Shown here: positions 1 through 34,423 of the stretch, piece after piece
Numbering within the stretch: the first letter of the stretch is position 1
Layout of the letters: each line of letters opens with the position of its first letter
Assembly (NCBI GenBank): GCA_023664385.1
Contig: JAMPFU010000012.1
Coordinates: 12,117 to 76,116, forward strand
DNA length: 64,000 nt
Direction: 5' to 3'
Origin: Clostridium sp.
GTDB lineage: Bacteria > Bacillota > Clostridia > Lachnospirales > Lachnospiraceae
Made by a program: the position numbers and the translations under genes
The notes under the pieces: generated by a model
What the model was told of the DNA's origin: nothing
What the model saw: only the letters and a program-made list of their open reading frames with translations
The model's database searches: none

Positions 1-3000
1 AGCAGCGCAAATATCGGCTCCCATATATACACATCCTTTGCAGCGCCAAAGGGATTGTCAATAAATATTGTCTTTGTCCGTATCTCCTCATTTCCAAGCT
101 GATACATGCCTGAAATGTAATTGATAATGGACACAAGGAACTGTATGTAGATACCCTGGGATTGTCCCGTGCTTCCAACAGCCTCCTCATATTTTAAATA
201 CCTGCTCTGCTCCTTGATGCGTTCCCGCTTATAAAGGCTCAGCTTTATTTTGTTCATGTCCGTCACGATAACGCCAAAAAGCTTTTTCAGTGCAAGGCTG
301 CCCCTTATAAATTTAATACGCTCCCTGTCATTTTCATAATCATCAGCCTGCGATACGATACCGTCAATGTAATCGGACATTCTCTGCTTTAAAAATTCAT
401 CCTTGACGTACGGTATTGTAAGCCCTACCATCTGTACTGCCTCATCGTCAACCATAATTCTCGAAAGTTTCGGCAGTTTATCAAGCTCTGTACGGACGTC
501 CATGCATCTCTGTAAGCACTGCTCCTCAAAGTTTGCCTTTATGGTTTCCATGTCAACAAGACTTTTTTCAATCCTGTCCCTCTCAAGCCTTATGTAATCG
601 ACTATGGATTTCAGGTTGTCCATAAGCTCCTTGGCTGCATCATAGGTATCAGGTATGATAACATCATTTCTTATGGTTGCCGCAAGCTCGTAAACCTCCA
701 TCTCGTCCAGTGAAACGGCAGTATTACCCTTAAATTTCAACAGCTCGCTTTTCGCCTTTTCCAAGGACTTACGGCTTCTATCGTAGGCTAAAAGGTTGTC
801 CTCAAAGATTCCTCTCAGCTTATCCTTATTCTCCGAAACAGGCTTTGCATGCTCTAAGCTTATATCATTTGTGACAATGATACGCTTCACATCCTTATAC
901 AGATCAAGCATATATCCCTGCTGCTTTGCATAATTCCGATACTGCTCATCACACTGCTTCGCCTCCGCCTCAAGACGTTCCAGCACCTCCTGACCGTTTT
1001 TCAGGTTTGTGACGATTTCAGATGCAGTTGCACTCTGCTCCTCATAGCTTCCAAATGCCGCCTCAATATTGCTGATGGCGTATTCTATGCTGCCCTCCAG
1101 CCTGCTTGCCGCAGCCTCCACTTCCTTTTTCTTATCCTGAAATGTTTTTAATCTCGCTTTTTGTTTTTCAATGTTCTCCTTGCAGTCTGCCAGCATTTTA
1201 TCATTTGAGGAATAGATTTGGTTGTTTTTCTCCTGCTCCTTTAAATCATCAACGCTGATTCCTCTTTTTTCAATCGCCTTGAGCGTTCTGTCCATTGCAT
1301 GTTTCAAGGTTTCCATAATAAGCTTTTTATCCTCAATGGTCTTTATCTCATCCCTGCCCTCGTCAAGCATCGCCGTAAACCTTGCCTTTATGTCGTCATC
1401 GCTTAACGTAAGCACGTCGCAAGGCTTATCAATGTTATAGTACGGCTTGTAGTGTACCTCCCATTCCGTAACCAAATCCTGAAGCTTTTTCTCGAGTGCC
1501 TCAAGATTTGCAACAGCCTCCTCATCAGCCCTTGAGCCGTCCTCGATGGCGGCTGTCAATCCTCTAATTTCTCCCTCAAGCCTGTCTATGTTTTTCTTAC
1601 ATTCATCGACAGTTTTTTCCTTTTCCTCCACCAAGGCAGAAAGTCTCGTTATGGTGTCAAGCCTTCCGACATCTCCAAGCTTTTCCTCATAGCGTGCCGT
1701 AAGCTCCTCCTGCTCCTGCTCCAAAGCCTTTATTCCATGCTTGATGTCCTTATTTTTCTCCTGGCAGGCAGCAATGTCCGAATCCTGCTCATACATCAGA
1801 CGTCTTGCATCACGAAGCTTGCGTGCCGCATCCATAAGCTCGCTCTCCTGCATACGGATGATAAACTGCTGGTCCTGCCTGTAGGTTGCAAGCATTTCCT
1901 CCTTAAATTCAAGCTTCAAGGCAAGCTCCTTAATGTTGCCTTCCTCCTCCTCAAGCAGCTTTACCCTTGTCTCCTCACTTGTGAGAAATTCTGCATCTGC
2001 ACGTATGCTCAAAACATTTTCTCCCACAATGAAAGCCTTTTCCAAAATAGCGTCCATATCAAATATATTCACCATTTCACTGCCTGTATCGACCCCTGAA
2101 ATATTAGGGTCATCCCTTATAATATCATATTCCTGCACAAGCAAGCCATATGGAAGCTCAGGGTTAATTTCCAAAAGCTCCCTCTGTTTATCCTGTGGAA
2201 GCGCAGAAATGTAATCCATGCCGTACATAGCCTGTATGCCATGTCTTCTCTCAAGATAATCCATAAGCTTCTTTGCAGCGGCAGAAACAGGAATAATCCT
2301 GCCCTCCGAAAGATTTTTTACCCTTTTTTTGTGCCGTTTCATCTCATCGGCAATGGCAGCATTTTCAAGCACGGTGGAGGTAATCCGTTCGGTGATTACC
2401 GTAAGCAGCTCCTCCCCGCCTGAAGCATAAACCGTCTTTATGTTGTCAAGCTTTTGGCTTGCCTCATTATACTGCTTTTCCTTCGCTTCAAGGGCTTCTA
2501 TCAGCTTATCATTTTCAGCCTTGGCAGCCTCGAGCCTTGAAAGCTCAAGCCTCGCCTCACTAAGCCTTTCATTGCTCTCCTTGATTTTTGCCGCCTTGTC
2601 AGAAATTTTCCATGCCAAATCCTTTCTGTCCTCGTCAAGCTGCTCCCTGTGCTCTCCAAAGGTGGCAAAGTTTAAATTGCTCATGGACATTTTAAGTCCT
2701 GCAAGCTGCTCGCTCAAGGAAACGATTTCATCATCGCATGCCTTCTTGATATTTACGGAAACAGCCTGCTCCACCCTTGCCTCCTGAAGCAGCCGCTGTT
2801 TATTTTCGACATTTTCCTGTTTTTCCTTCATCTGCGCTTTAATCACGTCAATCTTTTCCTGCACGATTGCCATGGAGGCATCCATCCGCATTTTGATGTT
2901 GTAGGCATAAGTATGAAGCATATCCTGGTCAAAGGGAGACTGTGCCGTTATCGTCTTCAGCATGGCGTCATGCCTGTGATATTTTTTTCTGTCGGACATA

Positions 3001-4193
3001 TAATCTATATATTCATTCATGCCCTCCTTAAAATTCAAATCATCGGTAAGCTCCTTCAGCTTATCCTCCGTCTCCTTTATGGCAGCCTCCACCTGTCCGA
3101 GATTATCGTACAGCTCGGACAGCTTATTCTTATCCCTTGCCACCTTAAGACATTCCATATATTTTCTCTGCTCATCCTTCTGCGTGCGCTTTTCGTCCCG
3201 AAGTCCTGCAAGCTCTGCCATTTTTTCCTCGTCATCCTTTGCAAACTCCTCGCCTGTAACGCATATGGCAGCCATAAGGCTTTCAAGACGGCTGAGCTCC
3301 TCATACAAATCCATAAATGAGCCTACCTTGTCGGAAAGCACGCCTACAAGCTCCATCTGACGGTCATAGCCCGCCATGTCCTTCTTCTTTTTTGCAAGTA
3401 TGGTAAGCTGCTCACGTATATCCATAAGCATTCTTGCCATAGCATCATCGCCTGTATCTTCACGCTGGGTTTTTACCATAAATGCCTTCTCAATGATTTC
3501 CTCTATGAGCAAATCCTCAACAACACGCCTTGTTGTTTTGTAATTATTTTCAAAATATGTTCTTACATGACCCTCAGTTTTATTGATGCCCCTTATAATC
3601 TCCCACTGGCTTTCGTGAAGCCCATAGCCGCTGATAAACCTCTGATACTCGCCCTTTCTGTCAAACACCCTTACCATAAGGGACATATCCTTATGCTCCA
3701 GGTCCTTTAAATAGGTTCTAAGCCCCTGAAAGCTGACCCGCTCGCCATTTTTTACGAGGGGAAGATTTATAATGTCATTTTTATTGTACTCCCTGTAAAA
3801 AATACAGTAATTAAAATATTCCACCGATGCAACGTCCTTTGACGTCTCGGTGTCGTCCCCTGCCTCCTTTGCCTTTCTGGCGCAAAAGCCTGTCGTCATA
3901 TATCTGTAGCCCTCTGTGCTGTCCTCCTTGTCAAGCCTCCATTCCACGAGAGAGTGAATTGTCGTATTTCCGTTTCCCGTCCTGAATAATTTTTCTATGG
4001 GCTGCTTCTCATCCAAGGTACAATTTGGTATCATGTTCTGCATAAGGAGAAGCATAAGCACGCTTTTTCCTCCACCGTTTGCCAAATCGTAGAGGGTGTT
4101 TTTTCCGTACATTCTCATGGTGAAATCGTCATAAAACTGGGTGCCGAAATTATATTTTACATTATTTACCCTTATTCTGTTTATACTAGGCAT
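1..4193 (-). CDS. SMC/MukB-like coiled-coil ABC-type ATPase; 3' end lies outside the window (>=1397 codons visible). Candidate JetC/MksF/MukB-type subunit
   Basis: Manual reverse-complement translation. The ATG at 4193 is preceded by GGGAGGTG and overlaps the stop of the upstream gene (ATGCCTAG). The N-terminus carries a P-loop-like motif, 'YDLANGGGKSVLM'. More than 1000 aa of E/K/L/Q-rich coiled-coil-like sequence follow; the + strand shows only Ser-rich shadow ORFs. Near position 150-1 there is a signature-like motif 'VGSTGQSQG', then 'TIFIDNPFGAAKD' (Walker B plus D-loop geometry as in MukB 'LSTGE...LLFLDEAARLD'). No stop codon occurs before position 1. Confidence 0.65.
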   Translation of the reverse strand, partial: MPSINRIRVNNVKYNFGTQFYDDFTMRMYGKNTLYDLANGGGKSVLMLLLMQNMIPNCTLDEKQPIEKLFRTGNGNTTIHSLVEWRLDKEDSTEGYRYMTTGFCARKAKEAGDDTETSKDVASVEYFNYCIFYREYNKNDIINLPLVKNGERVSFQGLRTYLKDLEHKDMSLMVRVFDRKGEYQRFISGYGLHESQWEIIRGINKTEGHVRTYFENNYKTTRRVVEDLLIEEIIEKAFMVKTQREDTGDDAMARMLMDIREQLTILAKKKKDMAGYDRQMELVGVLSDKVGSFMDLYEELSRLESLMAAICVTGEEFAKDDEEKMAELAGLRDEKRTQKDEQRKYMECLKVARDKNKLSELYDNLGQVEAAIKETEDKLKELTDDLNFKEGMNEYIDYMSDRKKYHRHDAMLKTITAQSPFDQDMLHTYAYNIKMRMDASMAIVQEKIDVIKAQMKEKQENVENKQRLLQEARVEQAVSVNIKKACDDEIVSLSEQLAGLKMSMSNLNFATFGEHREQLDEDRKDLAWKISDKAAKIKESNERLSEARLELSRLEAAKAENDKLIEALEAKEKQYNEASQKLDNIKTVYASGGEELLTVITERITSTVLENAAIADEMKRHKKRVKNLSEGRIIPVSAAAKKLMDYLERRHGIQAMYGMDYISALPQDKQRELLEINPELPYGLLVQEYDIIRDDPNISGVDTGSEMVNIFDMDAILEKAFIVGENVLSIRADAEFLTSEETRVKLLEEEEGNIKELALKLEFKEEMLATYRQDQQFIIRMQESELMDAARKLRDARRLMYEQDSDIAACQEKNKDIKHGIKALEQEQEELTARYEEKLGDVGRLDTITRLSALVEEKEKTVDECKKNIDRLEGEIRGLTAAIEDGSRADEEAVANLEALEKKLQDLVTEWEVHYKPYYNIDKPCDVLTLSDDDIKARFTAMLDEGRDEIKTIEDKKLIMETLKHAMDRTLKAIEKRGISVDDLKEQEKNNQIYSSNDKMLADCKENIEKQKARLKTFQDKKKEVEAAASRLEGSIEYAISNIEAAFGSYEEQSATASEIVTNLKNGQEVLERLEAEAKQCDEQYRNYAKQQGYMLDLYKDVKRIIVTNDISLEHAKPVSENKDKLRGIFEDNLLAYDRSRKSLEKAKSELLKFKGNTAVSLDEMEVYELAATIRNDVIIPDTYDAAKELMDNLKSIVDYIRLERDRIEKSLVDMETIKANFEEQCLQRCMDVRTELDKLPKLSRIMVDDEAVQMVGLTIPYVKDEFLKQRMSDYIDGIVSQADDYENDRERIKFIRGSLALKKLFGVIVTDMNKIKLSLYKRERIKEQSRYLKYEEAVGSTGQSQGIYIQFLVSIINYISGMYQLGNEEIRTKTIFIDNPFGAAKDVYIWEPIFAL

Positions 4194-4899
4194 CGGCTTC
4201 ACCTCCCAGCACCTTATATATCCTGCCCTTATACTCCTCAAAATAATTTTCCGCTATCGCCTTAAACCGCTTTGTAGGATAATATCTGTCCTCGACCTCC
4301 ACAAAAAGCTTCTGTGCCACAAGGAAATTAAAGGTAAGCTTAATGTAGCCTATGCGGGATGCCCTTGACGCCCTGTTTTTATCCTTGTCGTCAGAGGTTA
4401 CGGCGGGAAGCTCGTCCCACAAAAGGGCGATTGTCTTAAAGCTGTCCTCCTCAAGCTCATTCATGGAATAAACCGACAAATCGGACGTAATTCTTGAAAG
4501 ATAGGAGCTGACCTGCTCGAGCATATCGGAAAGCTTCACATACTCCTTCACCTGATATGCGGCAGAGTCCTGATAAAAGGAAAGCAGGGCATTGTACATA
4601 ATAAAATATACCATGTAAAGCTCCTTGTTTACCCGAAGTCCCAATAGTCTTTTCATATCGTCATTGGTGTACCCGAAGATACGGTTTCCGTCCCCTGCCG
4701 TTATGTATATGGAATCCTCATATTCATAAACATTCAGATTGAGCTTTTTCATCAGTCGGTTTGTAATGTCGTAAACTGCCTGATTGCCGTAATATTCCTC
4801 GTAAAGCTCCCTTGTATCAGCATTGGAACGGGACACCTCCTGCCCTGTTATCAGTGTGGAATATATATCCAGTGCTTTTTCAAGACTTTTTTCCTCCAT
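4186..4899 (-). CDS. Hypothetical 237-aa protein. Size and position match a KITE subunit (MukE/JetB-like), but there is no motif-level evidence
   Basis: ORF-track ORF. Its stop codon overlaps the start of the SMC-like gene, and its start abuts the stop of the 524-aa gene (4899/4902). The identity rests on gene order and size only. Confidence 0.35.
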   Translation of the reverse strand: MEEKSLEKALDIYSTLITGQEVSRSNADTRELYEEYYGNQAVYDITNRLMKKLNLNVYEYEDSIYITAGDGNRIFGYTNDDMKRLLGLRVNKELYMVYFIMYNALLSFYQDSAAYQVKEYVKLSDMLEQVSSYLSRITSDLSVYSMNELEEDSFKTIALLWDELPAVTSDDKDKNRASRASRIGYIKLTFNFLVAQKLFVEVEDRYYPTKRFKAIAENYFEEYKGRIYKVLGGEADA

Positions 4900-4901
4900 G
4901 T

Positions 4902-6476
4902 CTACCCGTTCCTCCTCTCAAAAACCATATCCGTTACAAACGCATTATCCTCCACATTTTCCACCGAAGCATCTGCGGGCATGAGATTGATAATCTCATC
5001 ACTGCGGGGTTCTACGGAAAATGACAGATCCCGAAACCTTATTATGTCCTCCTCCGACATATGTGTGACGACCATTTCCTCAAGCATGGTGTCCTGCTTT
5101 TCAAGCATTTTTTCAATGTCGTAGCTGTTCTTTCCTGCCAAATGTGCCAAAAAAGAGTAATAATCCCTGTTGGAATATATTTCATTTCCAAACTTTATTT
5201 CAAGAATACCGTTAAACTGCTTCAAATCTATTTTTTCCCACTTTTTAATCTGGTCTAACAGCTCCATAAATAACATATAGAAATTTTTTCCAATCTTTGC
5301 GTCCAATATCTCGTCATCGTATTTAAAATCAGGGTCGAGGGCATTTTTTTCCAATTTTTCTCCCTTATCCTTATCATCATTTTTCAACGAAAGCATATTG
5401 TCGATGCTTTTTATGGAAAATGACTTGTTAAGCTTCGGTGCAAAAAAAGGCATGAGCACATGTGCCATATCTGCGGGCTTATCCCGTTCCATCAGCTTGG
5501 ACATCATCTGCCTGAAATCAAATACGGGCCGAAGCTTCCGAAGCTTTGCCCTGCTGATTATGGAATCTGCAAGCTTTGTAAGCTCCACCGTTTCAGAAAT
5601 AAGCTGACTGTGATTATATATGGTTTTTTTTAGCTCCGTCTCAAGACTGCTGATGTCCTCCAATGTTTTCGACCTTAGTCCCTGTGTTCCTTCCCCGCTT
5701 TTCTCATAGCCGGCTCGCTCTATCGCCTTATCCACCAGCGCCTTGTTTTTTGCAAAAAGCTTCTGCTCGTCACTAAACCATTTTGCAGTCGTTTCCATGT
5801 ACTGCTCATATGCTCTTGTTCCCTCAAATACATCCACACTAAGAAGCTTCAAAACATTTTCTTTTTCAAGGGAAAGCTGCTTTACCTGACTGTTAATCCG
5901 CTTTACAACGTCAATGCCGCCCTTAAAATTATTTGAGCTTATGAGCTTCTCCAAAAGGAGTTGGGAAATGTTAATCCTGCTCTCGTCCTTTATCTCCTTT
6001 GTATCAAGATAAAACTCGATGCCCTCGGAGGTTATGTAATAGTAAACGGAGCCGTTTTCCACCCTGCTGTCGATAAGCTTCACTCTCGCTATTTTTCCTG
6101 TCTTTGCTTCAGGGTCATAAAATTTAAACTCAAATGCCCTTCCGTCATTTTTCAGCTTGTCAAATATGTAAAGCACAAGCTGTTTTTCCTCCTCAGGCTC
6201 CTCCTCAATATCAAAATCCCTCCGCAGCAGCTCCGTGAGAAATTTCTCGTACTCCTCGTAGGTAATGTCTTTTTCATGGAAATTATTTTCGTTGATGAAA
6301 AATCTTAAAGATGCCATAGTAATATAGCCCATGTCAAGGAGACTATATTTTCCCTCCTTATATTGGGAAAACGTAGTCTCGCTTAGCACAAAGAACGGAT
6401 AATATTTTTTCAGGTTCTGCATTCTCGTACTGTGCTCTGATATTATTTCATTTATCATCACATGTTTTAATGCCAT
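4902..6476 (-). CDS. Hypothetical 524-aa protein with no P-loop. Size and position match a kleisin (MukF/JetA-like), but this is an inference
   Basis: ORF-track ORF, 20 nt downstream of the vWA gene. Acidic/coiled segments are present and there is no GKS/T motif. The assignment rests on synteny with the 237-aa and SMC-like genes. Confidence 0.35.
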   Translation of the reverse strand: MALKHVMINEIISEHSTRMQNLKKYYPFFVLSETTFSQYKEGKYSLLDMGYITMASLRFFINENNFHEKDITYEEYEKFLTELLRRDFDIEEEPEEEKQLVLYIFDKLKNDGRAFEFKFYDPEAKTGKIARVKLIDSRVENGSVYYYITSEGIEFYLDTKEIKDESRINISQLLLEKLISSNNFKGGIDVVKRINSQVKQLSLEKENVLKLLSVDVFEGTRAYEQYMETTAKWFSDEQKLFAKNKALVDKAIERAGYEKSGEGTQGLRSKTLEDISSLETELKKTIYNHSQLISETVELTKLADSIISRAKLRKLRPVFDFRQMMSKLMERDKPADMAHVLMPFFAPKLNKSFSIKSIDNMLSLKNDDKDKGEKLEKNALDPDFKYDDEILDAKIGKNFYMLFMELLDQIKKWEKIDLKQFNGILEIKFGNEIYSNRDYYSFLAHLAGKNSYDIEKMLEKQDTMLEEMVVTHMSEEDIIRFRDLSFSVEPRSDEIINLMPADASVENVEDNAFVTDMVFERRNG

Positions 6477-6495: not shown

Positions 6496-8154
6496 CTACA
6501 ACTGACTGTTGAATAAGCTCTTTATCTTGTAAATAATATCCTCACTGTCCGCATTAATGCTGGCAGCTTCGTTAATTCCTGACACGTTCTGTAGCTCATT
6601 TGTATCTGCATCATTGCCATATCCGATTGTGTAAATTGGTATCTTTGCATTTGCAATTGTGCCCTTTATATTATCTAAATGCAGCTCACCGTTTGCATAG
6701 CCATCGGACAGAAGGATAATCATACATTTCGCATCAGGATTTTCCTCATGCTTTTTCTGCACCATATCTATCGCCACAACTAAAGCCTCATAGGTGTACG
6801 TGCTTCCCGAAGCCCGAAGTCCGTCAATGGCACCCTGAAAATAACTTCTCTGATTAAAATCAAACGGTGCAATCGGAAGCTCGATTGTCACATCGGATGA
6901 ATAGCTTACCATGCCAATGTAATTGTTGTCATTGATATACTTGGCACCGTTGGACAGACTGTATTTAAGCTGCTGCATCGGCTCGCCGTCCATGCTGCCT
7001 GAGCAGTCAGCAACAAATACTGCTATAATGTCATTTCCACTATCCTTGTGTCTTTTGTATACCTCCAACGCCTGAACAATCTCGGAGCCGCTTGTCGTAT
7101 AGTCATCCTGATAGTCGTCATTGGCATTAAATCCATTTCTTGTGGCTATCGCCTGAACATCACTGCTAAGCAGATAATCCTTAACGATATCCATTGCCGC
7201 GATTTCCTGTGGCGACTTGTTGTTTTTATTAACAATATAAAGCGGGTTGTCATGTCTTGCACCAAATGGTATAAAATCATATTGGCTTACAAGATTTTTG
7301 TCATTTATATACGCCTGATACTCTGACACAATCGCATCAAAATTCCCCTTTCCTGCACTGTCACGCATCTGCTGGGTTGTATATGCAATGTAAGGAATGT
7401 TGCCGTTAAAGGTCGAAAATGCTTCTATTGCCGTATCGCTGAACATATTGCTCTCGTCTGAGGTTTTCAAAATCTCAATGAGAAGATTAAGTCCTGTTGC
7501 ACTTGTCTGTGGATTTGTATATCCCAAATTAAGCTTTCCCGTTTTTACATCATTGATTACGCTATTTACATCTGTGTAGCCCGAATCCTTTTTCACCAGT
7601 ATTCCTGCCGTATTTCCTACAAGACGGTCTGCAAGCATGTCAAGCTTTGCTCCGCCCGCCTTCGCAAAATCTCCAAACAATTCATTGGACGGTGTATACA
7701 AATCAGGATAATATCTTCCTGAACGGATGTAGTCCGCAGCAAGCCCTGAGCTTACCGAGCGCACCGAAATACTTATAGTTTCTCCACTTTCAAGCGTATA
7801 GCCCCCTGCATTAAATTTTTCCGCAGCTTCTATCAGAAAATTGTCCGTATCCTGACCTGCTTTTTCTCCGGAAGTAAATATCTCAATGTCAATGTCGCCA
7901 TAGCCCTGTACTGCAAGGGGATATTTATCAATACTTGGAAGCTCGTCATACAGCGTATCGTCCTCAAGTGATATGGTACCCTTTTTCGGTGTTGCCTCTG
8001 TAACGCTTATATCCTCAAGCAGCTCATCAACAGGTCTGTCATCCCGTTCTTTTTTGTCAGAAATATTTTTTGTCAGCAGTGCCATAATAATGCCTGCCAT
8101 TAACATTACTACGATAACACCACAGAATACTATTTTCTTTCCGTCGTTGTTCAT
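6496..8154 (-). CDS. Membrane-anchored protein with an extracytoplasmic solute-binding-like region and a C-terminal von Willebrand factor A (vWA) domain
   Basis: A single N-terminal TM segment ('IVFCGVIVVMLMAGIIMALL'). A MIDAS-type motif 'VFVADCSGSMDG', followed by 'YSSDV...', 'ASGSTYTYEAL' and 'ILLSDGYANG', is typical of vWA domains. The SD AAGGGAGGA lies upstream of the ATG at 8154. Confidence 0.6.
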   Translation of the reverse strand: MNNDGKKIVFCGVIVVMLMAGIIMALLTKNISDKKERDDRPVDELLEDISVTEATPKKGTISLEDDTLYDELPSIDKYPLAVQGYGDIDIEIFTSGEKAGQDTDNFLIEAAEKFNAGGYTLESGETISISVRSVSSGLAADYIRSGRYYPDLYTPSNELFGDFAKAGGAKLDMLADRLVGNTAGILVKKDSGYTDVNSVINDVKTGKLNLGYTNPQTSATGLNLLIEILKTSDESNMFSDTAIEAFSTFNGNIPYIAYTTQQMRDSAGKGNFDAIVSEYQAYINDKNLVSQYDFIPFGARHDNPLYIVNKNNKSPQEIAAMDIVKDYLLSSDVQAIATRNGFNANDDYQDDYTTSGSEIVQALEVYKRHKDSGNDIIAVFVADCSGSMDGEPMQQLKYSLSNGAKYINDNNYIGMVSYSSDVTIELPIAPFDFNQRSYFQGAIDGLRASGSTYTYEALVVAIDMVQKKHEENPDAKCMIILLSDGYANGELHLDNIKGTIANAKIPIYTIGYGNDADTNELQNVSGINEAASINADSEDIIYKIKSLFNSQL

Positions 8155-8173: not shown

Positions 8174-8788
8174 TTATATACTTGTTTTTTCCTTTGTATC
8201 AGAAGCATTGACCGTATAATCGGATTTTCCCAGCTCCTGCTTTTTTACCTCCTCAAGGCAATTCAGCAGGTCATCCACATATGCCATGTCAAGCGTCGTT
8301 AAATTTGTATCTATGTCAACAATCTGTTCCACAAGCCTGTTGAATTTCCCTACGAGAACATCTCCCTGCTTGCACAAATTATCTAAATATACCGGATTGG
8401 GTCTTGTGTAATAATCATAGGTTTCTATGTATGCCGCAGCACTATCCATATTAGAATGCATCTGCTCAAGGATTTTATAATACATGTCCTTCATGCTGTC
8501 TTCCGTATTATCTGCAAAAAAATCCTCTCTTGATTTTATGCTCTCGTATTGTCTGCTTATGGCATCAACCTGTTTTTTAAAAACTCCCTTTCTATCGCTG
8601 TCCTTAAGCTTTTCCTTTGCTTTCTGTCCCTTTAAAAGCATAAGATTTGCTCCAATTGTATAAATAAGCCACACAGCCGTAAAAGCAATGCTGACGCCCA
8701 CGCCGATGGTGTTTTTGAATACAGACAGCATAAGCAATATAATGATAAACATAATAGCGCTGATTGCATTAACTGCTAAAAAATTCAT
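8174..8788 (-). CDS. Small membrane protein (204 aa from the internal ATG): two TM helices followed by a charged coiled-coil-like cytoplasmic region
   Basis: The ORF-track ORF starts at 8959. I favour the in-frame ATG at 8788 ('MNFLAVNAISAIMFIIILLML...') because it is preceded by AAGGAGA. This gene is the first of the five-gene operon. Confidence 0.45.
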   Translation of the reverse strand: MNFLAVNAISAIMFIIILLMLSVFKNTIGVGVSIAFTAVWLIYTIGANLMLLKGQKAKEKLKDSDRKGVFKKQVDAISRQYESIKSREDFFADNTEDSMKDMYYKILEQMHSNMDSAAAYIETYDYYTRPNPVYLDNLCKQGDVLVGKFNRLVEQIVDIDTNLTTLDMAYVDDLLNCLEEVKKQELGKSDYTVNASDTKEKTSI

Positions 8789-8850
8789 ATGTAGTATATT
8801 CTCCTTACACAATATGATGTAATATGTAATTGCGAAACTATGTTTTTTAG

Positions 8851-8880
8851 ATAATACGTTGTTCAAAATGTATAATTCAA
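8851..8880 (-). promoter_or_regulatory. Candidate sigma-A promoter for the five-gene operon: TTGAAT-N18-TATTAT on the minus strand
   Basis: Reverse complement of 8851-8880 read by eye. It lies about 60 nt upstream of the 8788 start. Confidence 0.3.
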
Positions 8881-8884
8881 TGCA

Positions 8885-9136
8885 TGGCACGCTTGCGCTG
8901 CTTGTCGCACGTAACGGTACTAAGCTCGAAAATACCTCGCTAAGTACCGACGGCTCCAAAGCGCCTTTGCGTATGAATTATACATTTTGCACAACTCACT
9001 TTTTTTGAAACCACTAAGTTGCGCAATTGCCTATATGATGTAATAATATCCTAAGGAATCCGTCTGCTTCGCAGACACCTTGTCACTTTGTCCTAAGGCA
9101 TCCTCCCAGCTTCGCTGGGTCTCTCCTTAGGACATA
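8885..9136. repeat. GC-rich intergenic hairpin-repeat block. The 45-nt element at 9090-9136 has a near-identical second copy at 55951-55995
   Basis: 9049-9078 reads 'tcctaaggaatccgtctgcttcgcagacacc'. 9090-9136 reads 'gtcctaaggcatcctcccagcttcgctgggtctctccttaggacata'. Compare 55951-55995, 'gtcctaagacatcctcccacttcgtgggtccctccttaggacata'. Both have an outer 8-bp stem (gtcctaag/cttaggac) and an inner stem with a CUUCG-type loop. The substitutions between copies are compensatory. Confidence 0.6.
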
Positions 9137-19943: not shown

Positions 19944-22769
19944 CTAAATATATTTCTTCAAATATTCTCCCGTATAGGACTTTTTATTTTTACATATCTG
20001 CTCAGGTGTGCCGCTTGCCACAATTGTACCGCCCCGCTCACCACCTTCAGGTCCTATGTCTATAATATAGTCGGCAGTTTTGATTACGTCCAAATTATGT
20101 TCTATCACCACAACCGTGTTTCCACCCTCCGTCAGTCTCTGCAATATGTCAACAAGCTTGTGGACGTCAGCGAAATGAAGTCCTGTGGTAGGCTCATCAA
20201 GGACATATATGGTTCTGCCTGTGCTTCTTCGGCTAAGCTCCGTTGCAAGCTTTATTCTCTGTGCCTCGCCGCCTGAGAGGGTTGTGGAAGGCTGTCCAAG
20301 CTTGATGTAGCCAAGTCCTACGTCCTGCAATGTAGATATCTTTCTAAGTACAGACGGTACATTTTCAAAAAACTCACATGCCTCGTCAACGGTCATGTCA
20401 AGAACATCATATATGCTCTTGCCTTTATATTTTACCGCAAGCGTTTCCCTGTTATACCGTTTGCCGTGGCACACCTCACATGGCACATACACATCTGCCA
20501 GAAAATGCATCTCAATTTTTATGATTCCGTCTCCCTTACAAGCCTCACATCTTCCTCCCGACACGTTAAAGGAAAATCTGCCCTTTGTGTAGCCCATTGC
20601 CTTTGCGTCCTTTGTGTTGGCAAACAAATCACGTATCAGATCAAATACGCCTGTGTATGTGGCAGGATTTGAACGTGGGCTTCTTCCTATCGGAGACTGG
20701 TCTATATTGATTATTTTGTCAAGCTGCTCAAGCCCAAGTATATCATCATGGTCGCCTGCCTTTATCTTTGCACGGTTCAGCTCCCTTGCAAGCCGCTTGT
20801 AGAGTATTTCATTTACAAGCGAGCTTTTTCCTGAGCCTGACACGCCTGTCACGCAGGTCATAACGCCAAGGGGGAATTTTACGTCAATATTTTTAAGGTT
20901 ATTCTGCCTTGCGCCCTTTACCTCTATAAAGCCTGTGGGCTTTTTGCGTTCGGCAGGCACGGGTATTTTCAGCTTGCCGCTGAGATATGCCCCTGTAATG
21001 GAAGCAGGGCACTTTTTTATGTCCTCCACCGTGCCCTCACACACGACCTCGCCGCCGTTTACGCCTGCGCCCGGTCCTATGTCCACGATGTGGTCGGCAG
21101 CATACATCGTATCCTCATCATGCTCAACAACCAAAAGCGTATTGCCTAAATCACGAAGCCGCTCCAAGGTCTTAATCAGCTTATTGTTGTCTCTTTGATG
21201 AAGTCCTATGCTTGGCTCGTCCAAAATGTAGGCGACGCCAACCAACCCCGAGCCGATCTGTGTTGCAAGCCTGATTCTCTGTGCCTCGCCGCCTGAAAGG
21301 GATGCAGTTGCCCTTGCAAGGGTAAGATAATCAAGTCCTACATTCATGAGGAAGGAAAGTCTGCCCCGTATCTCCTTTATAATCTGCTCACCGATTTTTC
21401 TCTGCCTATCGGTTATGTCCATATTGTCAATAAACTCTATCAGAGCGCCAATGGAACATTCCGTAACATCAGCAATATTTTTCCCGCCTACCGTAACTGC
21501 AAGTATCTCAGGCTTCAGCCTTTTTCCTTTACATTCCTCACATGGAATGGTAGTCATATATGCTTCATAGTCCTGCTTAATAATCTCCGCAGACGTTTCA
21601 CGGTATCTGCGCTGAACATTTTTTATCAGTCCCTCATAGGCAATCATGTAGACACCGCCGCCGCGAGAGCCCTGATATGATACCTTTATGCGCTTATCAC
21701 CCGTTCCGTGCAGAATGACGTCCTTTGATTTTTTATCCAAATCCTTAAATGGGACGTCGAGGGAAAAGCCGTATTCCTTTGAAAGTGCCTCAAGGCAGGC
21801 ATGGGTGTAGCTTTTTTTGTCGCCGCTTGACGCCCAGCCTATAACAGAAATTGCGCCCTCATTCAGGGAAAGGCTTGTATCAGGTATCATAAGGTCAACG
21901 TCAAACTCACTCTTAAAGCCAAGTCCTGTACAACACGGACATGCACCATAAGGATTATTGAAGGAAAAGCTCCTCGGCTCTATCTCATCTATGCTGATTC
22001 CACAATCAGGACACGAAAAGCTTTCGGAGAAAACAAGGGTGTCTCCGTCAATAACATCACATTTCAGTATGCCCTCCGACATTTTAAGCGCCGTTTCGAT
22101 AGAATCGGCAAGACGCCCTTCGATTCCCTCCTTCACTGCCAGTCTGTCAATGACAATGTCAATATTGTGCTTTTTATTTTTATCAAGCTTTATATCCTCA
22201 GATAAATCGTACATGCTGTCGTCAATAACGGCTCGCACAAATCCACTTCTCTTAACCTGTGCAAGAAGCTTCGCATGCTCGCCCTTCCTGCCCCTGATAA
22301 TCGGTGCAAGAATTTGAAACTTTGTCCCTGGCGCAAGCTTCATAATCTCATCCGTCATTTGGTCTGCAGTCTGCTTCATAATTTCCTTGCCGCATTTTGG
22401 ACAATGTGGAATCCCAATTCTTGCGTAGAGAAGCCTGAGGTAATCGTATATCTCTGTAACAGTACCCACGGTAGACCTTGGGTTTCTGTTTGTTGATTTT
22501 TGATCTATGGATATGGAGGGGGAAAGCCCTTCTATTTTTTCCACGTCAGGCTTTTCGGCAAGTCCCAAAAACTGTCTTGCATATGAGGAGAGCGATTCCA
22601 TATATTTCCTCTGCCCCTCAGCATAAATGGTATCAAATGCAAGTGAGGACTTACCTGACCCTGAAAGTCCCGTCAAAACAACAAACTGATCCCTCGGTAT
22701 TTTAATGTCAATATTTTTCAGATTGTGCTCCTTCGCACCTTTTATTGTAATATACTTATGCTCGTTCAT
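19944..22769 (-). CDS. uvrA: Excinuclease ABC subunit A
   Basis: 941 aa. Two ABC ATPase modules ('[12 protein letters not shown]', '[11 protein letters not shown]') with zinc-finger insertions. Confidence 0.95.
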
Positions 22770-22881
22770 GTGTATCCGCCTATCTTATGTTACTTAATTT
22801 TTTATAGAAAGCTTCGTTTCTTTGGCACATTCCTACGAAACCTGCTAAGCTTCAGGCTACAGTGCCAAAGGCACCATGCTC

Positions 22882-23175
22882 TTAAAGGCAATCCTTGCAT
22901 GCCTTTTTAAATTCCATGCTTTTTATCTTTTCCATATATTTCTTCATCGTATTCTGCATGTCAATTTTCTCTTTTTTATCCAAAATGTAAAGCGCAAATG
23001 CAGCTCCCATAATAAAGACTGTCACAAGGCAAATGCTAATCATACATTTTTTCTTTTTCTTGCACTTACATTCCTCATCAAAAATTTCGTCCTGCTCCTC
23101 AAGAACCTCCTCAACTGTTTCCATAGGAATGTCACGTCTCATGGAAATCTCTGCAACCATCTCATCTCTCAACAT
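22882..23175 (-). CDS. Small hypothetical membrane protein between uvrB and uvrA
   Basis: The SD AAGGAGGA lies upstream of the ATG at 23175. It has an acidic N-terminus, a lysine/Cys stretch and one TM helix. Confidence 0.4.
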   Translation of the reverse strand: MLRDEMVAEISMRRDIPMETVEEVLEEQDEIFDEECKCKKKKKCMISICLVTVFIMGAAFALYILDKKEKIDMQNTMKKYMEKIKSMEFKKACKDCL

Positions 23176-23313
23176 AATCTCGTCCTCCTTTTAATCGTTT
23201 TAATTTAATATGATACATCACCGCATCCCGATTAGCCTTCGGCAGGGCGGCGACGGTATTAAGCTTTGAATTTATAAGGCAAATTAAAAACTTAATATAT
23301 AGTATACAACATT

Positions 23314-25311
23314 TTAGGCATCATAATCACGTAAAATAATTTTTAATTTTTTAAGCTCGTCCCTTAATACTGCTGCCTCCTCAAAGTTAAGCTCCGCTGC
23401 TGCCTTGTTCATACGCTTGGTAAGTCTTGCAATTTCCTCCTTGAGCTCCTTCTTCGTCATAGATTCAGGCTCTTTTTTGTTCTTATCAGCCTTTTCTGTC
23501 TCTGTCTCATCGACAGCCTCAAGAGAAATAATGTCCCTGACCTCCTTTCTGATTGTTTCAGGCGTGATGCCGTGCTCTTTATTGTAAGCGTCCTGTATGC
23601 TTCTTCTTCTGTTCGTCTCATCTATCGCCCTTTGCATAGAGCCTGTAACCATATCGGCATACATAATCACATGCCCGTCAACATTTCTTGCGGCCCGTCC
23701 TATCGTCTGCACTAAGGATGTCTCCGAACGCAAGAAGCCCTCCTTATCGGCATCAAGAATAGCCACAAGCGTAATCTCGGGAATATCAAGTCCTTCACGC
23801 AGGAGGTTGATGCCGACAAGAACATCAAAAACTCCCATTCTAAGGTCACGGACTATCTCGATACGCTCAAGGGTATCTATGTCGGAATGGAGATATTTTA
23901 CCTTAATGTCAAGCTGCCTCATATAATCCGTCAAATCCTCAGCCATACGTTTTGTCAATGTCGTAACAAGCACCTTGTGTCCCTTGGCTGTCTCCTGATT
24001 TACCTCTGCAACAAGGTCGTCCACCTGTCCCTTAATAGGTCTTACATCAACCACCGGGTCAAGAAGTCCTGTCGGTCTGATTATCTGCTCCACAAAATTT
24101 TCCTCGTGGGAGCGCTCGTACTCGGCAGGGGTAGCCGACACATAGAGTATTTTGTCAACACGCTCCTCAAATTCCTGAAAATTAAGCGGACGGTTGTCAA
24201 GTGCCGATGGAAGTCTGAAGCCATAATCCACAAGCGTCTGTTTCCTTGCCCTGTCGCCTGCATACATGCCGCGAACCTGCGGCAGCGTCATATGGGACTC
24301 ATCTATAATGAGAAGATAATCGTCGTCAAAAAATTTGAGAAGGGTATTTGGCGTCGCCCCCGGCTCAAGTCCTGCAAGAATACGGGAATAGTTTTCCACT
24401 CCTGAACAAAATCCCGTTTCCCTCAGCATCTCTATGTCAAATTCCGTTCGTTCTGCTATTCTCTGTGCCTCAAGAAGCTTGTCATTTTCCTTGAAATAGT
24501 TTACTCTCTCGTCCAGCTCTCTCTTAATCTCCACAAGCGCCCGTTCCAGCTTGTCCTCTGCTACCACATAATGAGAAGCAGGAAATATGCATGCAAAATT
24601 AAGCGTTCTCTTTATCTCGCCTGTAAGCGGGTCAAACTCTACCAACCGGTCAATCTCATCGCCGAAAAATTCTATTCTGATTCCCGCCTCAAAGGTGGAG
24701 GCAGGAAGAACATCAACAACATCTCCCTTAACCCTGAAGCAGCCACGTGAAAAATCCATCTCGTTTCTTGTATACTGAATGTCAACAAGCTGTCTTATGA
24801 CCTCGTCCCTGTCCTTCGCCATGCCCGGACGAAGGGAAAGCATCATGGATTTATAATCCTCAGGGTCACCGATACCGTATATGCATGAAACCGAGGACAC
24901 AACAATAACGTCCTTTCTCTCAATCAGTGCAGCGGTAGCACTGTGACGCATCTTATCTATCTCGTCATTTACGGACGAATCCTTGGCAATGTACGTGTCG
25001 GTAGAAGGCACGTACGCCTCAGGCTGGTAATAATCATAATAAGATACGAAATACTCCACTGCATTGTGTGGAAAAAATGCCTTAAACTCGCTGTAAAGCT
25101 GTGCTGCAAGCGTTTTGTTGTGTGCCAAAATGATAGTCGGTTTATTGATGGCTGCTATTACATTTGCCATTGTGAATGTCTTGCCTGAGCCTGTAACGCC
25201 AAGGAGCGTCTGCTGTTTTTTGCCGTTTTGAAAACCGTCCACAAGTCCCTGTATGGCTTCCGGCTGGTCACCTGTCGGTGCAAATTCTGATACCAATTCA
25301 AATTTATCCAT
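23314..25311 (-). CDS. uvrB: Excinuclease ABC subunit B
   Basis: Helicase motifs ('GVTGSGKTF') and a C-terminal UvrB/UvrC interaction region. The ATG at 25311 is preceded by GGAGGTTTCTT; the ORF-track start at 25341 is likely too long. Confidence 0.95.
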
Positions 25312-25370
25312 AAGAAACCTCCGTAGTGGATATTTTAACATACTATAAAGGAAAAGTACAGAGCAAATAT

Positions 25371-30569: not shown

Positions 30570-32408
30570 TCACTCTGCGTCAAATAATGCCTCAAATTCA
30601 GCCCTGTCAATACGTTCTTTTTCAAGCAGACGTTCCGCACACTTGTGAAGAACCTCCATATTTTCCGTCAAAATACGCTTTGCCTCATCATAACAGTAAG
30701 CAATTATTTTTCTTACCTCTTTGTCTATCATAGCTGCCATTTTCTCACTATAGCTTCTGGAATGTCCCAAATCCCTTCCGAGGAATACCTCCTCGCTGCT
30801 GTCAACCTCATAGTTGATAAGGCCAACATGCTCTGACATTCCGTATTTCACCACCATATCCTGCGCAGCCTTGGTTGCCTGCTTGATATCCTGAGACGCA
30901 CCTGTTGTTATATCGCCAAATATAAGTTCCTCCGCAATACGTCCTCCAAAGCTTACCTGAATATCCTGAAGCAGCTTTGTCTTTGTGGTAAATACATTAT
31001 CATTTTCAGGCAGCGGCATCGTATAACCGCCTGCACCAAGTCCATTTGGAATGATGGAAACAATATGAACAGGTCCCACCTCGCTTAAAACATGGAATAA
31101 AATTGCATGTCCCGCCTCGTGATATGCCGTTATCTTTCTATCCTTCTCAGGCACAAGACGGCTCTTTTTCTCTCCACCTATGCCTAACTTTATAAATGAT
31201 TTGTCAACGTCCTCCTTTGAAATGTACGGACGGTTTTCCTTTGCGGCATTGATTGCCGACTCATTCATAAGGTTTTCCAAATCAGCGCCTGCAAAGCCTG
31301 ATGTCGTTCTTGCAATCTCATGTAAATCCACATCATCGGAAAGCGGCTTGTTTCTTACATGTACCTTTAATATTTCTTCCCTTCCCTTTACGTCAGGTCT
31401 GCCGACCATAACCTTTCTGTCAAAACGTCCCGGACGCAGAATGGCAGGGTCAAGGATGTCAACTCTGTTTGTAGCCGCAAGTATAATAATTCCTTCATTT
31501 GTTCCAAAACCGTCCATCTCAACGAGCATCTGATTTAAGGTCTGCTCCCTCTCGTCATGTCCACCGCCAAGACCTGAGCCTCTCTGTCTTGCAACCGCAT
31601 CAATTTCATCGATAAATACGATACATGGTGCATTTCTTTTGGCATCCTCGAACAAATCCCTCACTCTTGCCGCACCGACACCGACAAACATCTCAACAAA
31701 ATCCGAACCCGATATTGAGAAAAATGGAACACCAGCCTCGCCTGCAACAGCCTTTGCAAGCAGGGTCTTACCGGTTCCCGGAGGACCCTCAAGCAAAACA
31801 CCCTTAGGAATACGGGCTCCCAATGTATTATATTTCTTAGGATCCCTGAGGAAATCCACAATCTCGCTTAATTCTTCCTTTTCCTCCTCAAGTCCCGCAA
31901 CATCCTTAAATGACAGCTTATTGTCTGCGTCAGAGAGCATCCTTGCACGGCTTTTGCCAAAGCTCATGACCTTTCCGCCTCCGCCTGCGCCACCCGACGC
32001 ATTGCTTGTCATTACAACAATAAGGATTACCATAAGTACGGCACCAAGTATTATGGGCAGCCATGTCAAAAATGTACTCTGCTTTGGTACATCGTACATT
32101 GTCATTTTTACCATGCCGTCACCGTACTTCATAATATATTCCTGAACGACATTTACATCGGAAACATAAAATTCCTTTGTTTCCCCTGTATCTCTATAAG
32201 CAAAGGTGACAACACCCGTTGGAACCTCACTGTTTTGGCGGATAACTACCTCGCTTATTCTATCTTCCCTTATATCAATTTGGAAATCATCTATTGTATA
32301 ATTAACATCCGTTTCAGCCCCCTGCTTTGACATCCAAAGCACAATGCAAAAACCGATTACGAAAAGCAAAAGATAAAAACCCAAACTTTTCCTCATGGCA
32401 CTTCTCAT
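30570..32408 (-). CDS. ftsH: ATP-dependent zinc metalloprotease FtsH
   Basis: AAA module '[23 protein letters not shown]', zinc motif 'HEAGHA' and an N-terminal TM region. Confidence 0.95.
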
Positions 32409-32427
32409 TTTACGCTCCCTTCCGACC

Positions 32428-32949
32428 TTATTCCTCTATTACTCCAATGTACGGCAGATTTCTGTATTTCTGCGCACAGTCTAAACCACATCCAACTACA
32501 AACCTGTCAGGAATTACAAATCCTGTCATATCCGGCTCTATGTCAACAACCCTTCTGCCCGGTTTATCTAAAAGGGTTATAATCTTAAAGCTTGCAGGCT
32601 TTCTCTCCTGAAGTATTTTCACAAGATAGGAAAGCGTCCTGCCCGAATCCATAATATCCTCGACAAGAATAACCTCCCTGCCCTCTATGGACTCATCTAA
32701 ATCCTTAATCAGCCGTACAACCCCTGACGACTTTGTATCGTTTCCATAGCTTGTTACGGACATAAAATCCATTGTAACTGGAACATCAAGCCGCTTTGCA
32801 AGCTCACACATAAAGAAAATGCTTCCCTTTAACACTCCAATTATATGCACACTTTTTCCTGCATAGTCCTTATTTATGGTATCTGCCATTTCTTGGATTT
32901 TTTCCGCAACCTTATCTTCACTTATAAGTACGCCTATTTTTTCCGCCAT
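32428..32949 (-). CDS. hpt: Hypoxanthine phosphoribosyltransferase
   Basis: PRPP-binding motif '[14 protein letters not shown]'. The tilS-hpt-ftsH synteny matches B. subtilis. Confidence 0.9.
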
Positions 32950-32950
32950 C

Positions 32951-34351: not shown

Positions 34352-34423
34352 CTGTTAAAACCTGACATCACCTAACAATATGTACTATATTATAAATCAC
34401 GATTTTGGGGATGTACATAGTTA

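Follow-up and report, generated by a model that had tools for sequence, protein, structure and literature searches.

A conserved asparagine at the predicted catalytic glutamate position of Walker B in type III Wadjet JetC proteins

How does an SMC-like complex use ATP when the glutamate expected after its Walker B aspartate is an asparagine? SMC complexes are thought to be ATP-hydrolysis-driven DNA loop extruders. The window, the whole 64-kb stretch of DNA analysed here, opens inside a minus-strand gene that raises this question. A preliminary description read its product as an SMC/MukB-like ABC ATPase with an STGQ signature and an IFID Walker B followed by Asn, and proposed a naturally hydrolysis-impaired clamp. 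The gene and its partners are as follows.

1..4193, minus strand: jetC3 (partial), type III Wadjet SMC-like ABC ATPase (ORF translation; PADLOC JetC3 PDLC00581)
4186..4899, minus strand: jetB3, KITE-like partner (DUF6063), 237 aa (PADLOC JetB3 3e-102; Pfam DUF6063 2e-47)
4902..6476, minus strand: jetA3, kleisin-like partner, 524 aa (PADLOC JetA3 4e-214)

From its start at 4193 (MPSINRIRV...) the jetC3 ORF continues past the first base of the window, its reading frame unbroken across 1397 codons. The part inside the window is the first 1397 aa of about 1466 aa; some 69 C-terminal aa fall outside it, judged from full-length homologues of 1466-1470 aa. The translated part matches the PADLOC profile PDLC00581 with 1632 bits (E=0) over profile positions 1-1404 of 1473. 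On the minus strand the gene order is jetA3, jetB3, jetC3, with an 8-nt overlap of jetB3 with the start of jetC3, and PADLOC and Pfam place JetA3 and JetB3 (DUF6063) in one operon with JetC3, the combination that marks type III Wadjet. These results identify the product of 1..4193 (minus strand) as the JetC of a type III Wadjet: an SMC ATPase of the MukB kind that has a long coiled coil and is encoded in one operon with JetA3 and JetB3. This identity, like the missing JetD treated below, lay beyond the view of the preliminary description.

Type III Wadjet systems of B. thuringiensis and the B. cereus group were reportedly treated by Doron in 2018 and Liu in 2022. The type III JetC of the B. 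cereus group and others resembles the window protein in its JetA3/JetB3/JetC3 profiles, its length of ~1470 aa and its DUF6063 partner. Pfam detected no ATPase domain in JetC3, and an Rfam scan of the window gave no matches. LmuB was considered as an identity for JetC3 and rejected: the sole PADLOC LmuB matches were weak (3e-6) and confined to the coiled coil, which we regard as noise, and the partner genes are JetA3 and JetB3, not LmuA/LmuC.

The ATPase head motifs near the two ends of the translated part are listed here.

4062..4082, minus strand: Walker A / P-loop, A38-N-G-G-G-K43-S44, pairing with MukB NGAGKS (hhalign); LANGGGKS in 80/80 species
162..176, minus strand: ABC signature (C-loop), G1340-S-T-G-Q1344, pairing with MukB LSTGE; helix cap in the model
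54..68, minus strand: Walker B strand I1376-F-I-D1379 plus N1380, pairing with MukB FLD1406-E1407; Asn at the canonical SMC/ABC catalytic Glu site
33..53, minus strand: P1381-F-G-A-A-K-D1387; P-F family-wide, A-A-K-D (D-loop-like, ending at 33..35) subfamily-specific

The signature and Walker B lie in the peptide ...GSTGQ...TIFIDNPFGAAKD..., and reverse-complement translation up to window base 1 ends in ...KYEEAVGSTGQSQGIYIQFLVSIINYISGMYQLGNEEIRTKTIFIDNPFGAAKDVYIWEPIFAL, which reproduces the translation of the last codons quoted in the preliminary description. Residues 38-44 (ANGGGKS) form a Walker A of the GxxGxGK[ST] kind, in which N39, G42 and K43 are invariant family-wide; the signature is LSGG[QE]-like, with S, G and Q likewise invariant across the family. 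At Walker B, JetC3 departs from the rule of hhhhD followed by a catalytic Glu: hhhhD is present (IFID, with D1379 at 57..59, gac), and D+1 is Asn (N1380 at 54..56, aat). The earlier D-loop-like reading of AAKD holds within the subfamily, where its Asp is conserved, but not across the family.

That N1380 occupies the catalytic position depends on the alignment register. JetC3 has diverged too far from type I JetC and MukB for Pfam or PDB sequence detection: PDB sequence-profile searches with full-length, C-head and mini-head alignments returned coiled-coil, linker or chance matches only; sequence alone does not connect the JetC3 heads with any solved head. Local hhalign comparison with E. coli MukB paired STGQ/STGE, FIDN/FLDE and VQLI/MQLI in the C-half (P=6e-4) and the Walker A motifs in the N-half (P=1.2e-4), with hhalign probabilities of 28-55% against a MukB template of Neff 1.0; a search for E. 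coli MukB homologues gave only MukBs of at least 87% identity and so no gain for the MukB profile. We built an AlphaFold (AF2) model for a naturally short homologue of 787 aa (P0141; pLDDT 85.7, pTM 0.69). In this model two head halves flank long helices, the bipartite head of an SMC protein, S-x-G-Q caps helix 663-685, and Walker B is β-strand 695-698, then D700-N701. The topology runs from the signature helix cap through a β-strand to D-N, a helix and a β-strand. Foldseek with the model gave MukB 7nyw as the top match (E 5.6e-17), next type I JetC (9qxu/8dk2/8q72/8as8), then Smc, Rad50 and type II JetC. These matches to MukB and JetC heads (E about 1e-17) and the 1632-bit PADLOC JetC3 match bear out the SMC/MukB-like ABC ATPase proposed before.

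Motif pairing with MukB and the topology of the model together place N1380 at the position of MukB E1407, in agreement with the earlier assignment of STGQ as signature, IFID as Walker B and Asn at the catalytic site. The MukB-like spacing claimed alongside was right in its co-linear layout but not in its ~33 aa: the signature Ser and the Walker B Asp stand 38 residues apart in JetC3 and 40 in MukB. A shifted alignment or a bulge could in principle put some other acidic residue at the catalytic position, an objection that the preliminary description had itself raised, and the weakness of the sequence links (empty PDB HMM searches, the low hhalign probabilities) leaves room for it. We consider it very improbable because the model β-strand ends at the invariant Asp, 38 residues past the signature Ser and in the canonical helix-strand succession, because both head halves align to MukB co-linearly and independently, and because the ±5 residues around the Walker B Asp include no conserved acidic one; D1387 is subfamily-specific and E1392 is variable in distant members.

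N1380 and the head motifs are invariant in the 120 best homologues of JetC3 (120/120). The same pocket motifs recur in 80/80 species genomes despite overall identity as low as 42%, and N1380 is again invariant, encoded by AAC in 39 and AAT in 41. Both Asn codons are in use at this invariant residue (synonymous saturation at N1380), and the conservation is far beyond chance. Among ~105 distant relatives the Walker B Asp is invariant; D+1 is N in ~95, a distant branch has S or A, and neither E nor D occurs at D+1. The pattern is D-[N, rarely S or A]-P-F. D-N is also found in JetD-linked type III operons (Pontibacillus ILADNPFG, B. mycoides LISDNPFS, B. cereus LVTDNPFG), whose JetC3 proteins share D-N-P-F, S-x-G-Q and N-x-x-E with the window protein; the B. 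cereus-group evidence comes from relatives of the B. thuringiensis YBT-020 system, not from the YBT-020 sequence itself. Two further JetD-linked type III operons fit the D-N or D-A pattern as well, one from Sedimentibacter and one at another locus, L011, which has D-A; Ser or Ala at D+1 is tolerated in some JetD-linked type III members.

A D-E Walker B occurred in none of the 120 close homologues, ~105 distant representatives and 80 species genomes. The preliminary description had allowed that homologues might show D-E and the Asn be a strain mutation or sequencing error; every close homologue and species genome keeps the Asn instead. A sequencing error, strain-specific mutation or pseudogene thus has a negligible chance of explaining it, being refuted by the identical motif in 120 homologues, 80 species genomes and distant genera, and by the intact ORF. 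Type I/II JetC proteins were sought on plasmids for a D-E contrast, but the MukB-head query returned MukBs only and the JetD query nothing beyond more type III operons. For type I JetC the D-E pair is taken from the literature (10.1101/2022.10.04.510915), and for MukB it was read from sequence; with their canonical D-E (JetC E1022, MukB D1406-E1407) both differ from the D-N of JetC3. Comparison of the predicted proteins shows that the E-to-N replacement is of ancient origin, defines the clade (D-[N>>S/A]-P-F) and is maintained by strong purifying selection, and on the same comparison the Walker B Asn characterises type III JetC proteins as a whole. Its presence in all of them, including B. cereus-group operons of the plasmid-restricting kind, marks it as a design feature rather than a defect. 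We found no paper describing the type III JetC Walker B Asn.

Judged by its motifs, namely the Walker A Lys, Walker B Asp and S-x-G-Q, the JetC3 head is shown to retain the elements for Mg-ATP binding and for sandwiching between two heads. Other positions vary. The H-loop position is R, H, Y, F or W among distant relatives, and MukB, like JetC3, is without the H-loop His (QLIIAAP). B. cereus-group JetC3 proteins have G-K-G in Walker A in place of G-K-S/T; the window protein differs from them with its canonical G-K-S, and has Arg at the H-loop position. The loss of the catalytic Glu, the variable H-loop, the missing Walker A Ser/Thr in the B. cereus group and the lack of a Pfam ATPase domain would all fit a decayed site, with a head that no longer binds nucleotide and a JetC3 that serves purely as a structural coiled-coil scaffold. 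This is improbable, since relatives with as little as 25% identity still keep the Walker A Lys, the Walker B Asp and the signature S-G-Q unchanged although the rest of the protein has diverged, and since synonymous codons are saturated at the motif residues, where decay would mean drift.

JetC3 may instead be the naturally hydrolysis-impaired clamp first proposed, which is one of two live readings of these motifs; S/A tolerance at D+1, the B. cereus-group G-K-G and the variable H-loop count toward impaired hydrolysis. Natural Walker B variants of hhhhD[Q/S/T/E] or hhhhDD form are known from Lamassu LmuB, in which slow ATP hydrolysis is inferred and thought to be a safeguard or timer (PMC10586767; PMC12663957). 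LmuB is, like JetC3, an SMC-like defence protein with a non-canonical Walker B (hhhhDD in long LmuB, hhhhD[Q/S/T/E] in short), but it is SbcC/Rad50-derived, has a zinc hook, ~650 aa and the partners LmuA and LmuC, and its D+1 residue drifts among Q/S/T/E whereas that of JetC3 is fixed as Asn. The degenerate sites of heterodimeric ABC exporters have lost the Walker B catalytic Glu and kept ATP binding (PMC7544095). This loss is common to JetC3 and the exporters ABCB11, TAP1, CFTR NBD1 and TM287/288; however, the exporters keep one canonical hydrolysing site, whereas in a JetC3 homodimer both sites would be the same and without the Glu.

Type I JetC (E. coli GF4-3, P. aeruginosa PA14) and MukB are the best structural matches of JetC3 and share its head-plus-coiled-coil build, co-linear motifs and kleisin and KITE partners. 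In type I JetC the substitution E1022Q eliminates both ATPase activity and plasmid cleavage (10.1101/2022.10.04.510915). The field expects a shared extrusion-cleavage mechanism, which in its type I version is hydrolysis-dependent. Like types I and II, the B. thuringiensis type III Wadjet restricts plasmids, and it requires the JetD Toprim Glu; its anti-plasmid activity was demonstrated in B. subtilis, and it is the only type III system so shown. Restriction in vivo by type III together with the expected hydrolysis-driven mechanism argues for a working motor, and hence for some other catalytic residue. One motif is a candidate for that role.

3573..3584, minus strand: N204-K-T-E207 (INKTEGHV), in a loop that directly precedes the coiled coil; putative counterpart of the Q-loop or stand-in for the catalytic residue

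JetC3 would then be a fully competent motor ATPase with a relocated general base, most plausibly E207 of N-x-x-E-G-x-V: a Q-loop-like Gln would have turned into Glu and, as a compensating change, the Walker B Glu into Asn. The base might also come from E84, H80 or a partner subunit. Neither N204 nor E207 varies in any of the diverse family members examined, Bacillus and Pontibacillus among them, or in 80/80 species, and E207 is kept where D+1 is S or A. The P0141 model has N-x-x-E as a loop between helices 199-208 and 215-222, and the motif loop lies ~14 residues ahead of the coiled-coil helix, the usual SMC Q-loop site. That Asn is strictly kept in most lineages and does not drift points to a specific chemical role, and plasmid restriction by type III in vivo, set beside the hydrolysis that type I requires, also favours such a base. 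The placement of the catalytic Glu varies among P-loop ATPase classes, but we know of no precedent for an ABC-class ATPase with a Q-loop Glu as base. The hhalign alignment of JetC3 with MukB is gapped and uninformative around N204-x-x-E207, the equivalence of this motif to the Q-loop is putative, and the Walker A G-K-G of B. cereus-group members speaks against selection for fast Mg-ATP turnover. We regard a relocated base as possible but doubtful.

A further feature separates the window's clade from other type III Wadjet systems. Four JetDs used as tblastn queries detected no JetD Toprim nuclease (PF09983 JetD_C) in the 64-kb window or near jetABC3 in 80 related Lachnospiraceae loci (0/80, ±8 kb), while as positive controls the JetDs match each other at E 1e-13 to 1e-50. 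The related loci were gathered with the close-family JetC3 alignment, and the search covered ±8 kb per relative and 64 kb on one side here. ORFs flanking jetABC3 had no PADLOC match. The synteny jetABC3 - radical SAM - malic enzyme - MoxR, in which the downstream radical SAM gene is PA0069/Rv2578c-like, is seen in 40-45 of the 80 species, relatives 93-95% identical carry radical SAM, malic enzyme and MoxR in the region past the window start, and the window is core chromosome (UvrA, UvrB, FtsH, SpoIIE). The clade thus differs from type III Wadjet in being without JetD and in having housekeeping synteny rather than a defence island. The lack of JetD in 80 loci and the conserved chromosomal synteny suggest a nuclease-less JetABC in these Lachnospiraceae, although a JetD could be encoded elsewhere in the genome.

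MksBEF is likewise a chromosomal SMC-kleisin-KITE trio without a JetD/MksG nuclease. MksB is of a type I-like lineage with canonical D-E, in which it differs from JetABC3; a chromosome-organising role for JetABC3 is putative. The C. cellulovorans Wadjet was set aside as a comparison; it is a type I-like system and not relevant.

We lean towards a joint reading in which JetC3 is a slow ATP-gated clamp or switch and the Lachnospiraceae JetABC a nuclease-less DNA-organising or DNA-sequestering complex. JetC3 would most likely gate DNA as such a clamp or switch, its two identical sites hydrolysing ATP slowly, or only once a non-Walker-B residue is brought in, and its cycle would be dominated by long-lived engaged heads rather than by fast motor cycling. 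The Lachnospiraceae complex, apparently without JetD and vertically inherited at a fixed chromosomal locus, is probably MksBEF-like, organising or sequestering DNA rather than cutting plasmids. More tentatively, and short of an even chance, we propose that all type III Wadjet-family complexes are without the canonical catalytic Glu in both symmetric sites and are either non-motor ATP-latched clamps or users of a relocated base (E207), and that the JetD-less Lachnospiraceae branch is an unrecognised chromosomal SMC-like system.

Asn across the whole JetC3 family raises the question of how type III complexes use ATP. A whole Wadjet type with fixed Asn (or Ser/Ala), including systems that restrict plasmids in vivo, is a natural experiment on whether canonical hydrolysis is needed for SMC-based DNA recognition. 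A non-motor latch that recognises DNA without loop extrusion would, if real, overturn the assumption of shared extrusion-cleavage for all Wadjet types, and an ABC/SMC ATPase with E207 as base would represent a new type of catalytic architecture. With its vertical inheritance and without JetD, the Lachnospiraceae branch would give abundant gut Clostridia a chromosomal SMC-like system that had so far gone unrecognised. Defence-annotation pipelines may overlook JetABC3 or mislabel the module as Wadjet. JetABC3 without a nuclease is widespread in gut Lachnospiraceae (488 species genomes).

PADLOC assigns the window protein to JetC of type III Wadjet (PDLC00581, 1632 bits, end-to-end alignment), encoded behind jetA3 and jetB3 in an operon. 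The features concerned, all on the minus strand, are:

4193 to window base 1, minus strand: jetC3 (partial), an uninterrupted 1397-codon ORF beginning MPSINRIRVNN...
54..56, minus strand: codon aat of N1380
57..59, minus strand: codon gac of D1379
4899..4186, minus strand: jetB3 (PADLOC JetB3, also Pfam DUF6063), upstream of jetC3
6476..4902, minus strand: jetA3 (PADLOC JetA3), upstream of jetC3
6496..8154, minus strand: 552-aa protein with an SBP_bac_11-like domain and a C-terminal VWA domain, ending 20 nt before jetA3
8174..8959, minus strand: 261-aa ORF without family match, preceding the 552-aa gene
19944..25341 and 30570..36469, minus strand: UvrA, UvrB, FtsH and SpoIIE homologues

Reverse-complement translation in the frame ending at window base 1 reproduces the peptide quoted in the preliminary description, reaching the window edge with ...EEAVGSTGQSQGIYIQFLVSIINYISGMYQLGNEEIRTKTIFIDNPFGAAKDVYIWEPIFAL. 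Full-length JetC3 homologues have 1466-1470 aa, so about 69 residues of the protein lie beyond the window.

The JetC3 head is very diverged, since Pfam and NCBIfam detected no ATPase domain in it and searches of PDB sequences with JetC3 profiles returned coiled-coil noise only. A fold model was made for the short homologue P0141 (787 aa, both head halves complete) from a 53-sequence alignment. The model was confident (pLDDT 85.7, pTM 0.69), and its top structural matches were MukB (7nyw, 5.6e-17) and type I JetC (9qxu, 8dk2, 9qxx, 8q72, 8as8), followed by Smc, Rad50, type II JetC and Lamassu LmuB. In it, a helix (663-685) is capped by the invariant S-x-G-Q. Next comes a hydrophobic four-residue β-strand (695-698) that terminates in D700-N701, and after it a helix and another strand; as modelled, the elements stand in the canonical ABC order, with the signature first, Walker B next, then the D-loop region and the H-loop strand. 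Profile-to-sequence comparison with E. coli MukB scored weakly, with both halves independently co-linear throughout: the N-half (P=1.2e-4) pairs NGGGKS with NGAGKS, and the C-half (P=6e-4) pairs STGQ with STGE, FIDN with FLD1406-E1407, and VQLI with MQLI. Signature Ser and Walker B Asp are 38 residues apart in JetC3 and 40 in MukB. The family alignment holds no conserved acidic residue near the Walker B Asp that could take the catalytic position instead; D1387 of AAKD is subfamily-specific, and distant members differ at the E of IWEP. For these reasons the MukB-like register proposed earlier, with STGQ as signature, IFID as Walker B and Asn in place of the catalytic Glu, stands. P0141, used solely as a foldable proxy, is a JetC3 relative whose head halves are complete and whose coiled coil and hinge together span no more than about 290 aa; this short form may be a mini-SMC occurring in nature or the product of an assembly deletion.

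The Asn is no peculiarity of this strain. The 120 best homologues (overall identity 45-93%) all carry VGSTGQSQG and T[IV]FIDNPFGAAKD without change. When 1.84 billion cluster representatives were searched exhaustively with phmmer, 494 relatives emerged. Among about 105 that are full-length (identity in this domain down to 25%), the residue after the Walker B Asp (D+1) is N in about 95; a single distant branch has S or A, and E or D never occurs, giving the family motif hhhhD-[N/S/A]-P-[F/W]-[G/S/A]. The sole invariants across diverse heads are R8, N39, G42, K43, Q52, P56, F70, H80, E84, G102, N204, E207, the signature S/G/Q, Walker B D, N1401 and Q1404. A scan of species-representative genomes found a relative in 488; the best 80 of these, all Lachnospiraceae-type (Coprococcus hominis and Eubacterium ruminantium ATCC 17233 among them), have identical pocket motifs though overall identity drops to 42%, and encode the Asn as AAC (39) or AAT (41), a case of purifying selection acting at the amino-acid level.

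Type III operons with JetD carry the D+1 substitution too:

Pontibacillus JetC3: SGGE...ILADNPFG
B. mycoides JetC3: SGGQ...LISDNPFS
B. cereus pRML04 JetC3: SGGQ...LVTDNPFG
Sedimentibacter JetC3: D-N
L011 (a metagenomic, defence-island locus) JetC3: D-A

Recurrence of the Asn in homologues, species genomes and JetD-bearing operons excludes a sequencing error or strain-specific mutation, and it likewise disposes of the preliminary description's other refuting condition, D-E in the homologues. The Glu-less Walker B characterises type III JetC across the clade. It appears unreported: our literature search found no paper mentioning it.

In the Bacillaceae, Sedimentibacter and L011 operons the order is JetD-JetA3-JetB3-JetC3, in defence-island-like surroundings. 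Walker A in JetC3 of the B. cereus group reads G-G-K-G rather than G-K-[S/T] (L005:3804-4550, B. mycoides p481; L093:12344-13100, B. cereus pRML04), a second departure from a canonical Mg-ATP site, on top of D-N, in JetD-carrying operons. Behind the QLIV strand, the window subfamily has Arg at the H-loop position (QLIVPAR; residues 1404-1410 of homologue P0001, beyond the window start), where the remaining JetC3 branches have His, Tyr, Phe or Trp. In E. coli MukB (QLIIAAP), too, no His is found there.

With Walker A Lys, Walker B Asp and the signature invariant, ATP would still be bound, sandwiched between two JetC3 heads, while the general base is missing at Walker B. We incline slightly towards JetC3 being a slow ATP-latched clamp or switch; the hydrolysis-impaired clamp of the preliminary description is plausible. 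E→Q has a universal effect in SMC/ABC proteins; in type I JetC, the Walker B mutant E1022Q is unable to hydrolyse ATP, and with it DNA is no longer cleaved nor plasmids restricted (10.1101/2022.10.04.510915). Lamassu LmuB is a natural precedent, with a Walker B of hhhhDD or hhhhD[Q/S/T/E] and inferred slow hydrolysis (PMC10586767, PMC12663957). Ser or Ala at D+1 is tolerated in JetD-linked members, the H-loop varies, and the Mg-coordinating Walker A Ser/Thr is lost in the B. cereus group. Degenerate sites without the catalytic Glu are also described for heterodimeric ABC exporters (PMC7544095), which, however, keep a second, canonical site. Wadjet-III has been termed 'largely uncharacterized', with the extrusion-cleavage principle assumed for it; plasmid restriction in B. 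subtilis by the type III operon of B. thuringiensis depends on the JetD Toprim Glu. A relocated catalytic base would reconcile the Glu-less motif with a motor mechanism; its prime candidate, invariant E207 of the N-x-x-E-G-x-V loop, directly precedes the coiled coil, where the Q-loop sits in SMC proteins, but the MukB alignment is gapped around this loop, and we rate relocation as the less likely of the two.

At the window's locus the Glu-less JetC is combined with absence of JetD. Four JetD queries, which matched one another at E 1e-13 to 1e-50 as positive control, found no JetD in the 64-kb window, nor in loci L002, L004, L006, L008 and L012, nor in the 80 species loci (L013-L092, best 80 of 488 genomes) including ±8 kb flanks. 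In these 80, the genes downstream of jetA3-jetB3-jetC3 encode a PA0069/Rv2578c-like radical SAM protein (40), a malic enzyme (45) and MoxR (36), a synteny persisting from 95% to 42% JetC3 identity. The window belongs to the core chromosome of a Lachnospiraceae bacterium of spore-former type (UvrA, UvrB, FtsH, SpoIIE, amylase, MMPL), and its nearest genomes are MAGs, e.g. Lachnospiraceae UBA7076 (JetC3 identity 94-95%). Given the missing JetD, conserved synteny and chromosomal setting, JetABC3 of this clade looks like a vertically inherited system, nuclease-less at the locus, rather than a mobile defence island; in architecture it resembles MksBEF. The L011 operon contrasts in setting, being flanked by WYL, HNH, PLD and SNF2 genes typical of a defence island.

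The 552-aa and 261-aa ORFs probably lie outside the system, because they are limited to the closest relatives (3/80 loci). Rfam gave no match in the window, where large ORFs lie nearly all on the minus strand. One relative has a ToxN-like toxin gene upstream of jetA3 (L004:2980-3369, minus strand). The radical SAM protein (291-295 aa; kin to the PA0069/Rv2578c 'DNA repair photolyase'/SplB-like families) begins 15-20 nt past the jetC3 stop in 40 of the 80 species (compare L004:12424-13311 and L008:11426-12301), and its gene may be co-transcribed with jetC3.
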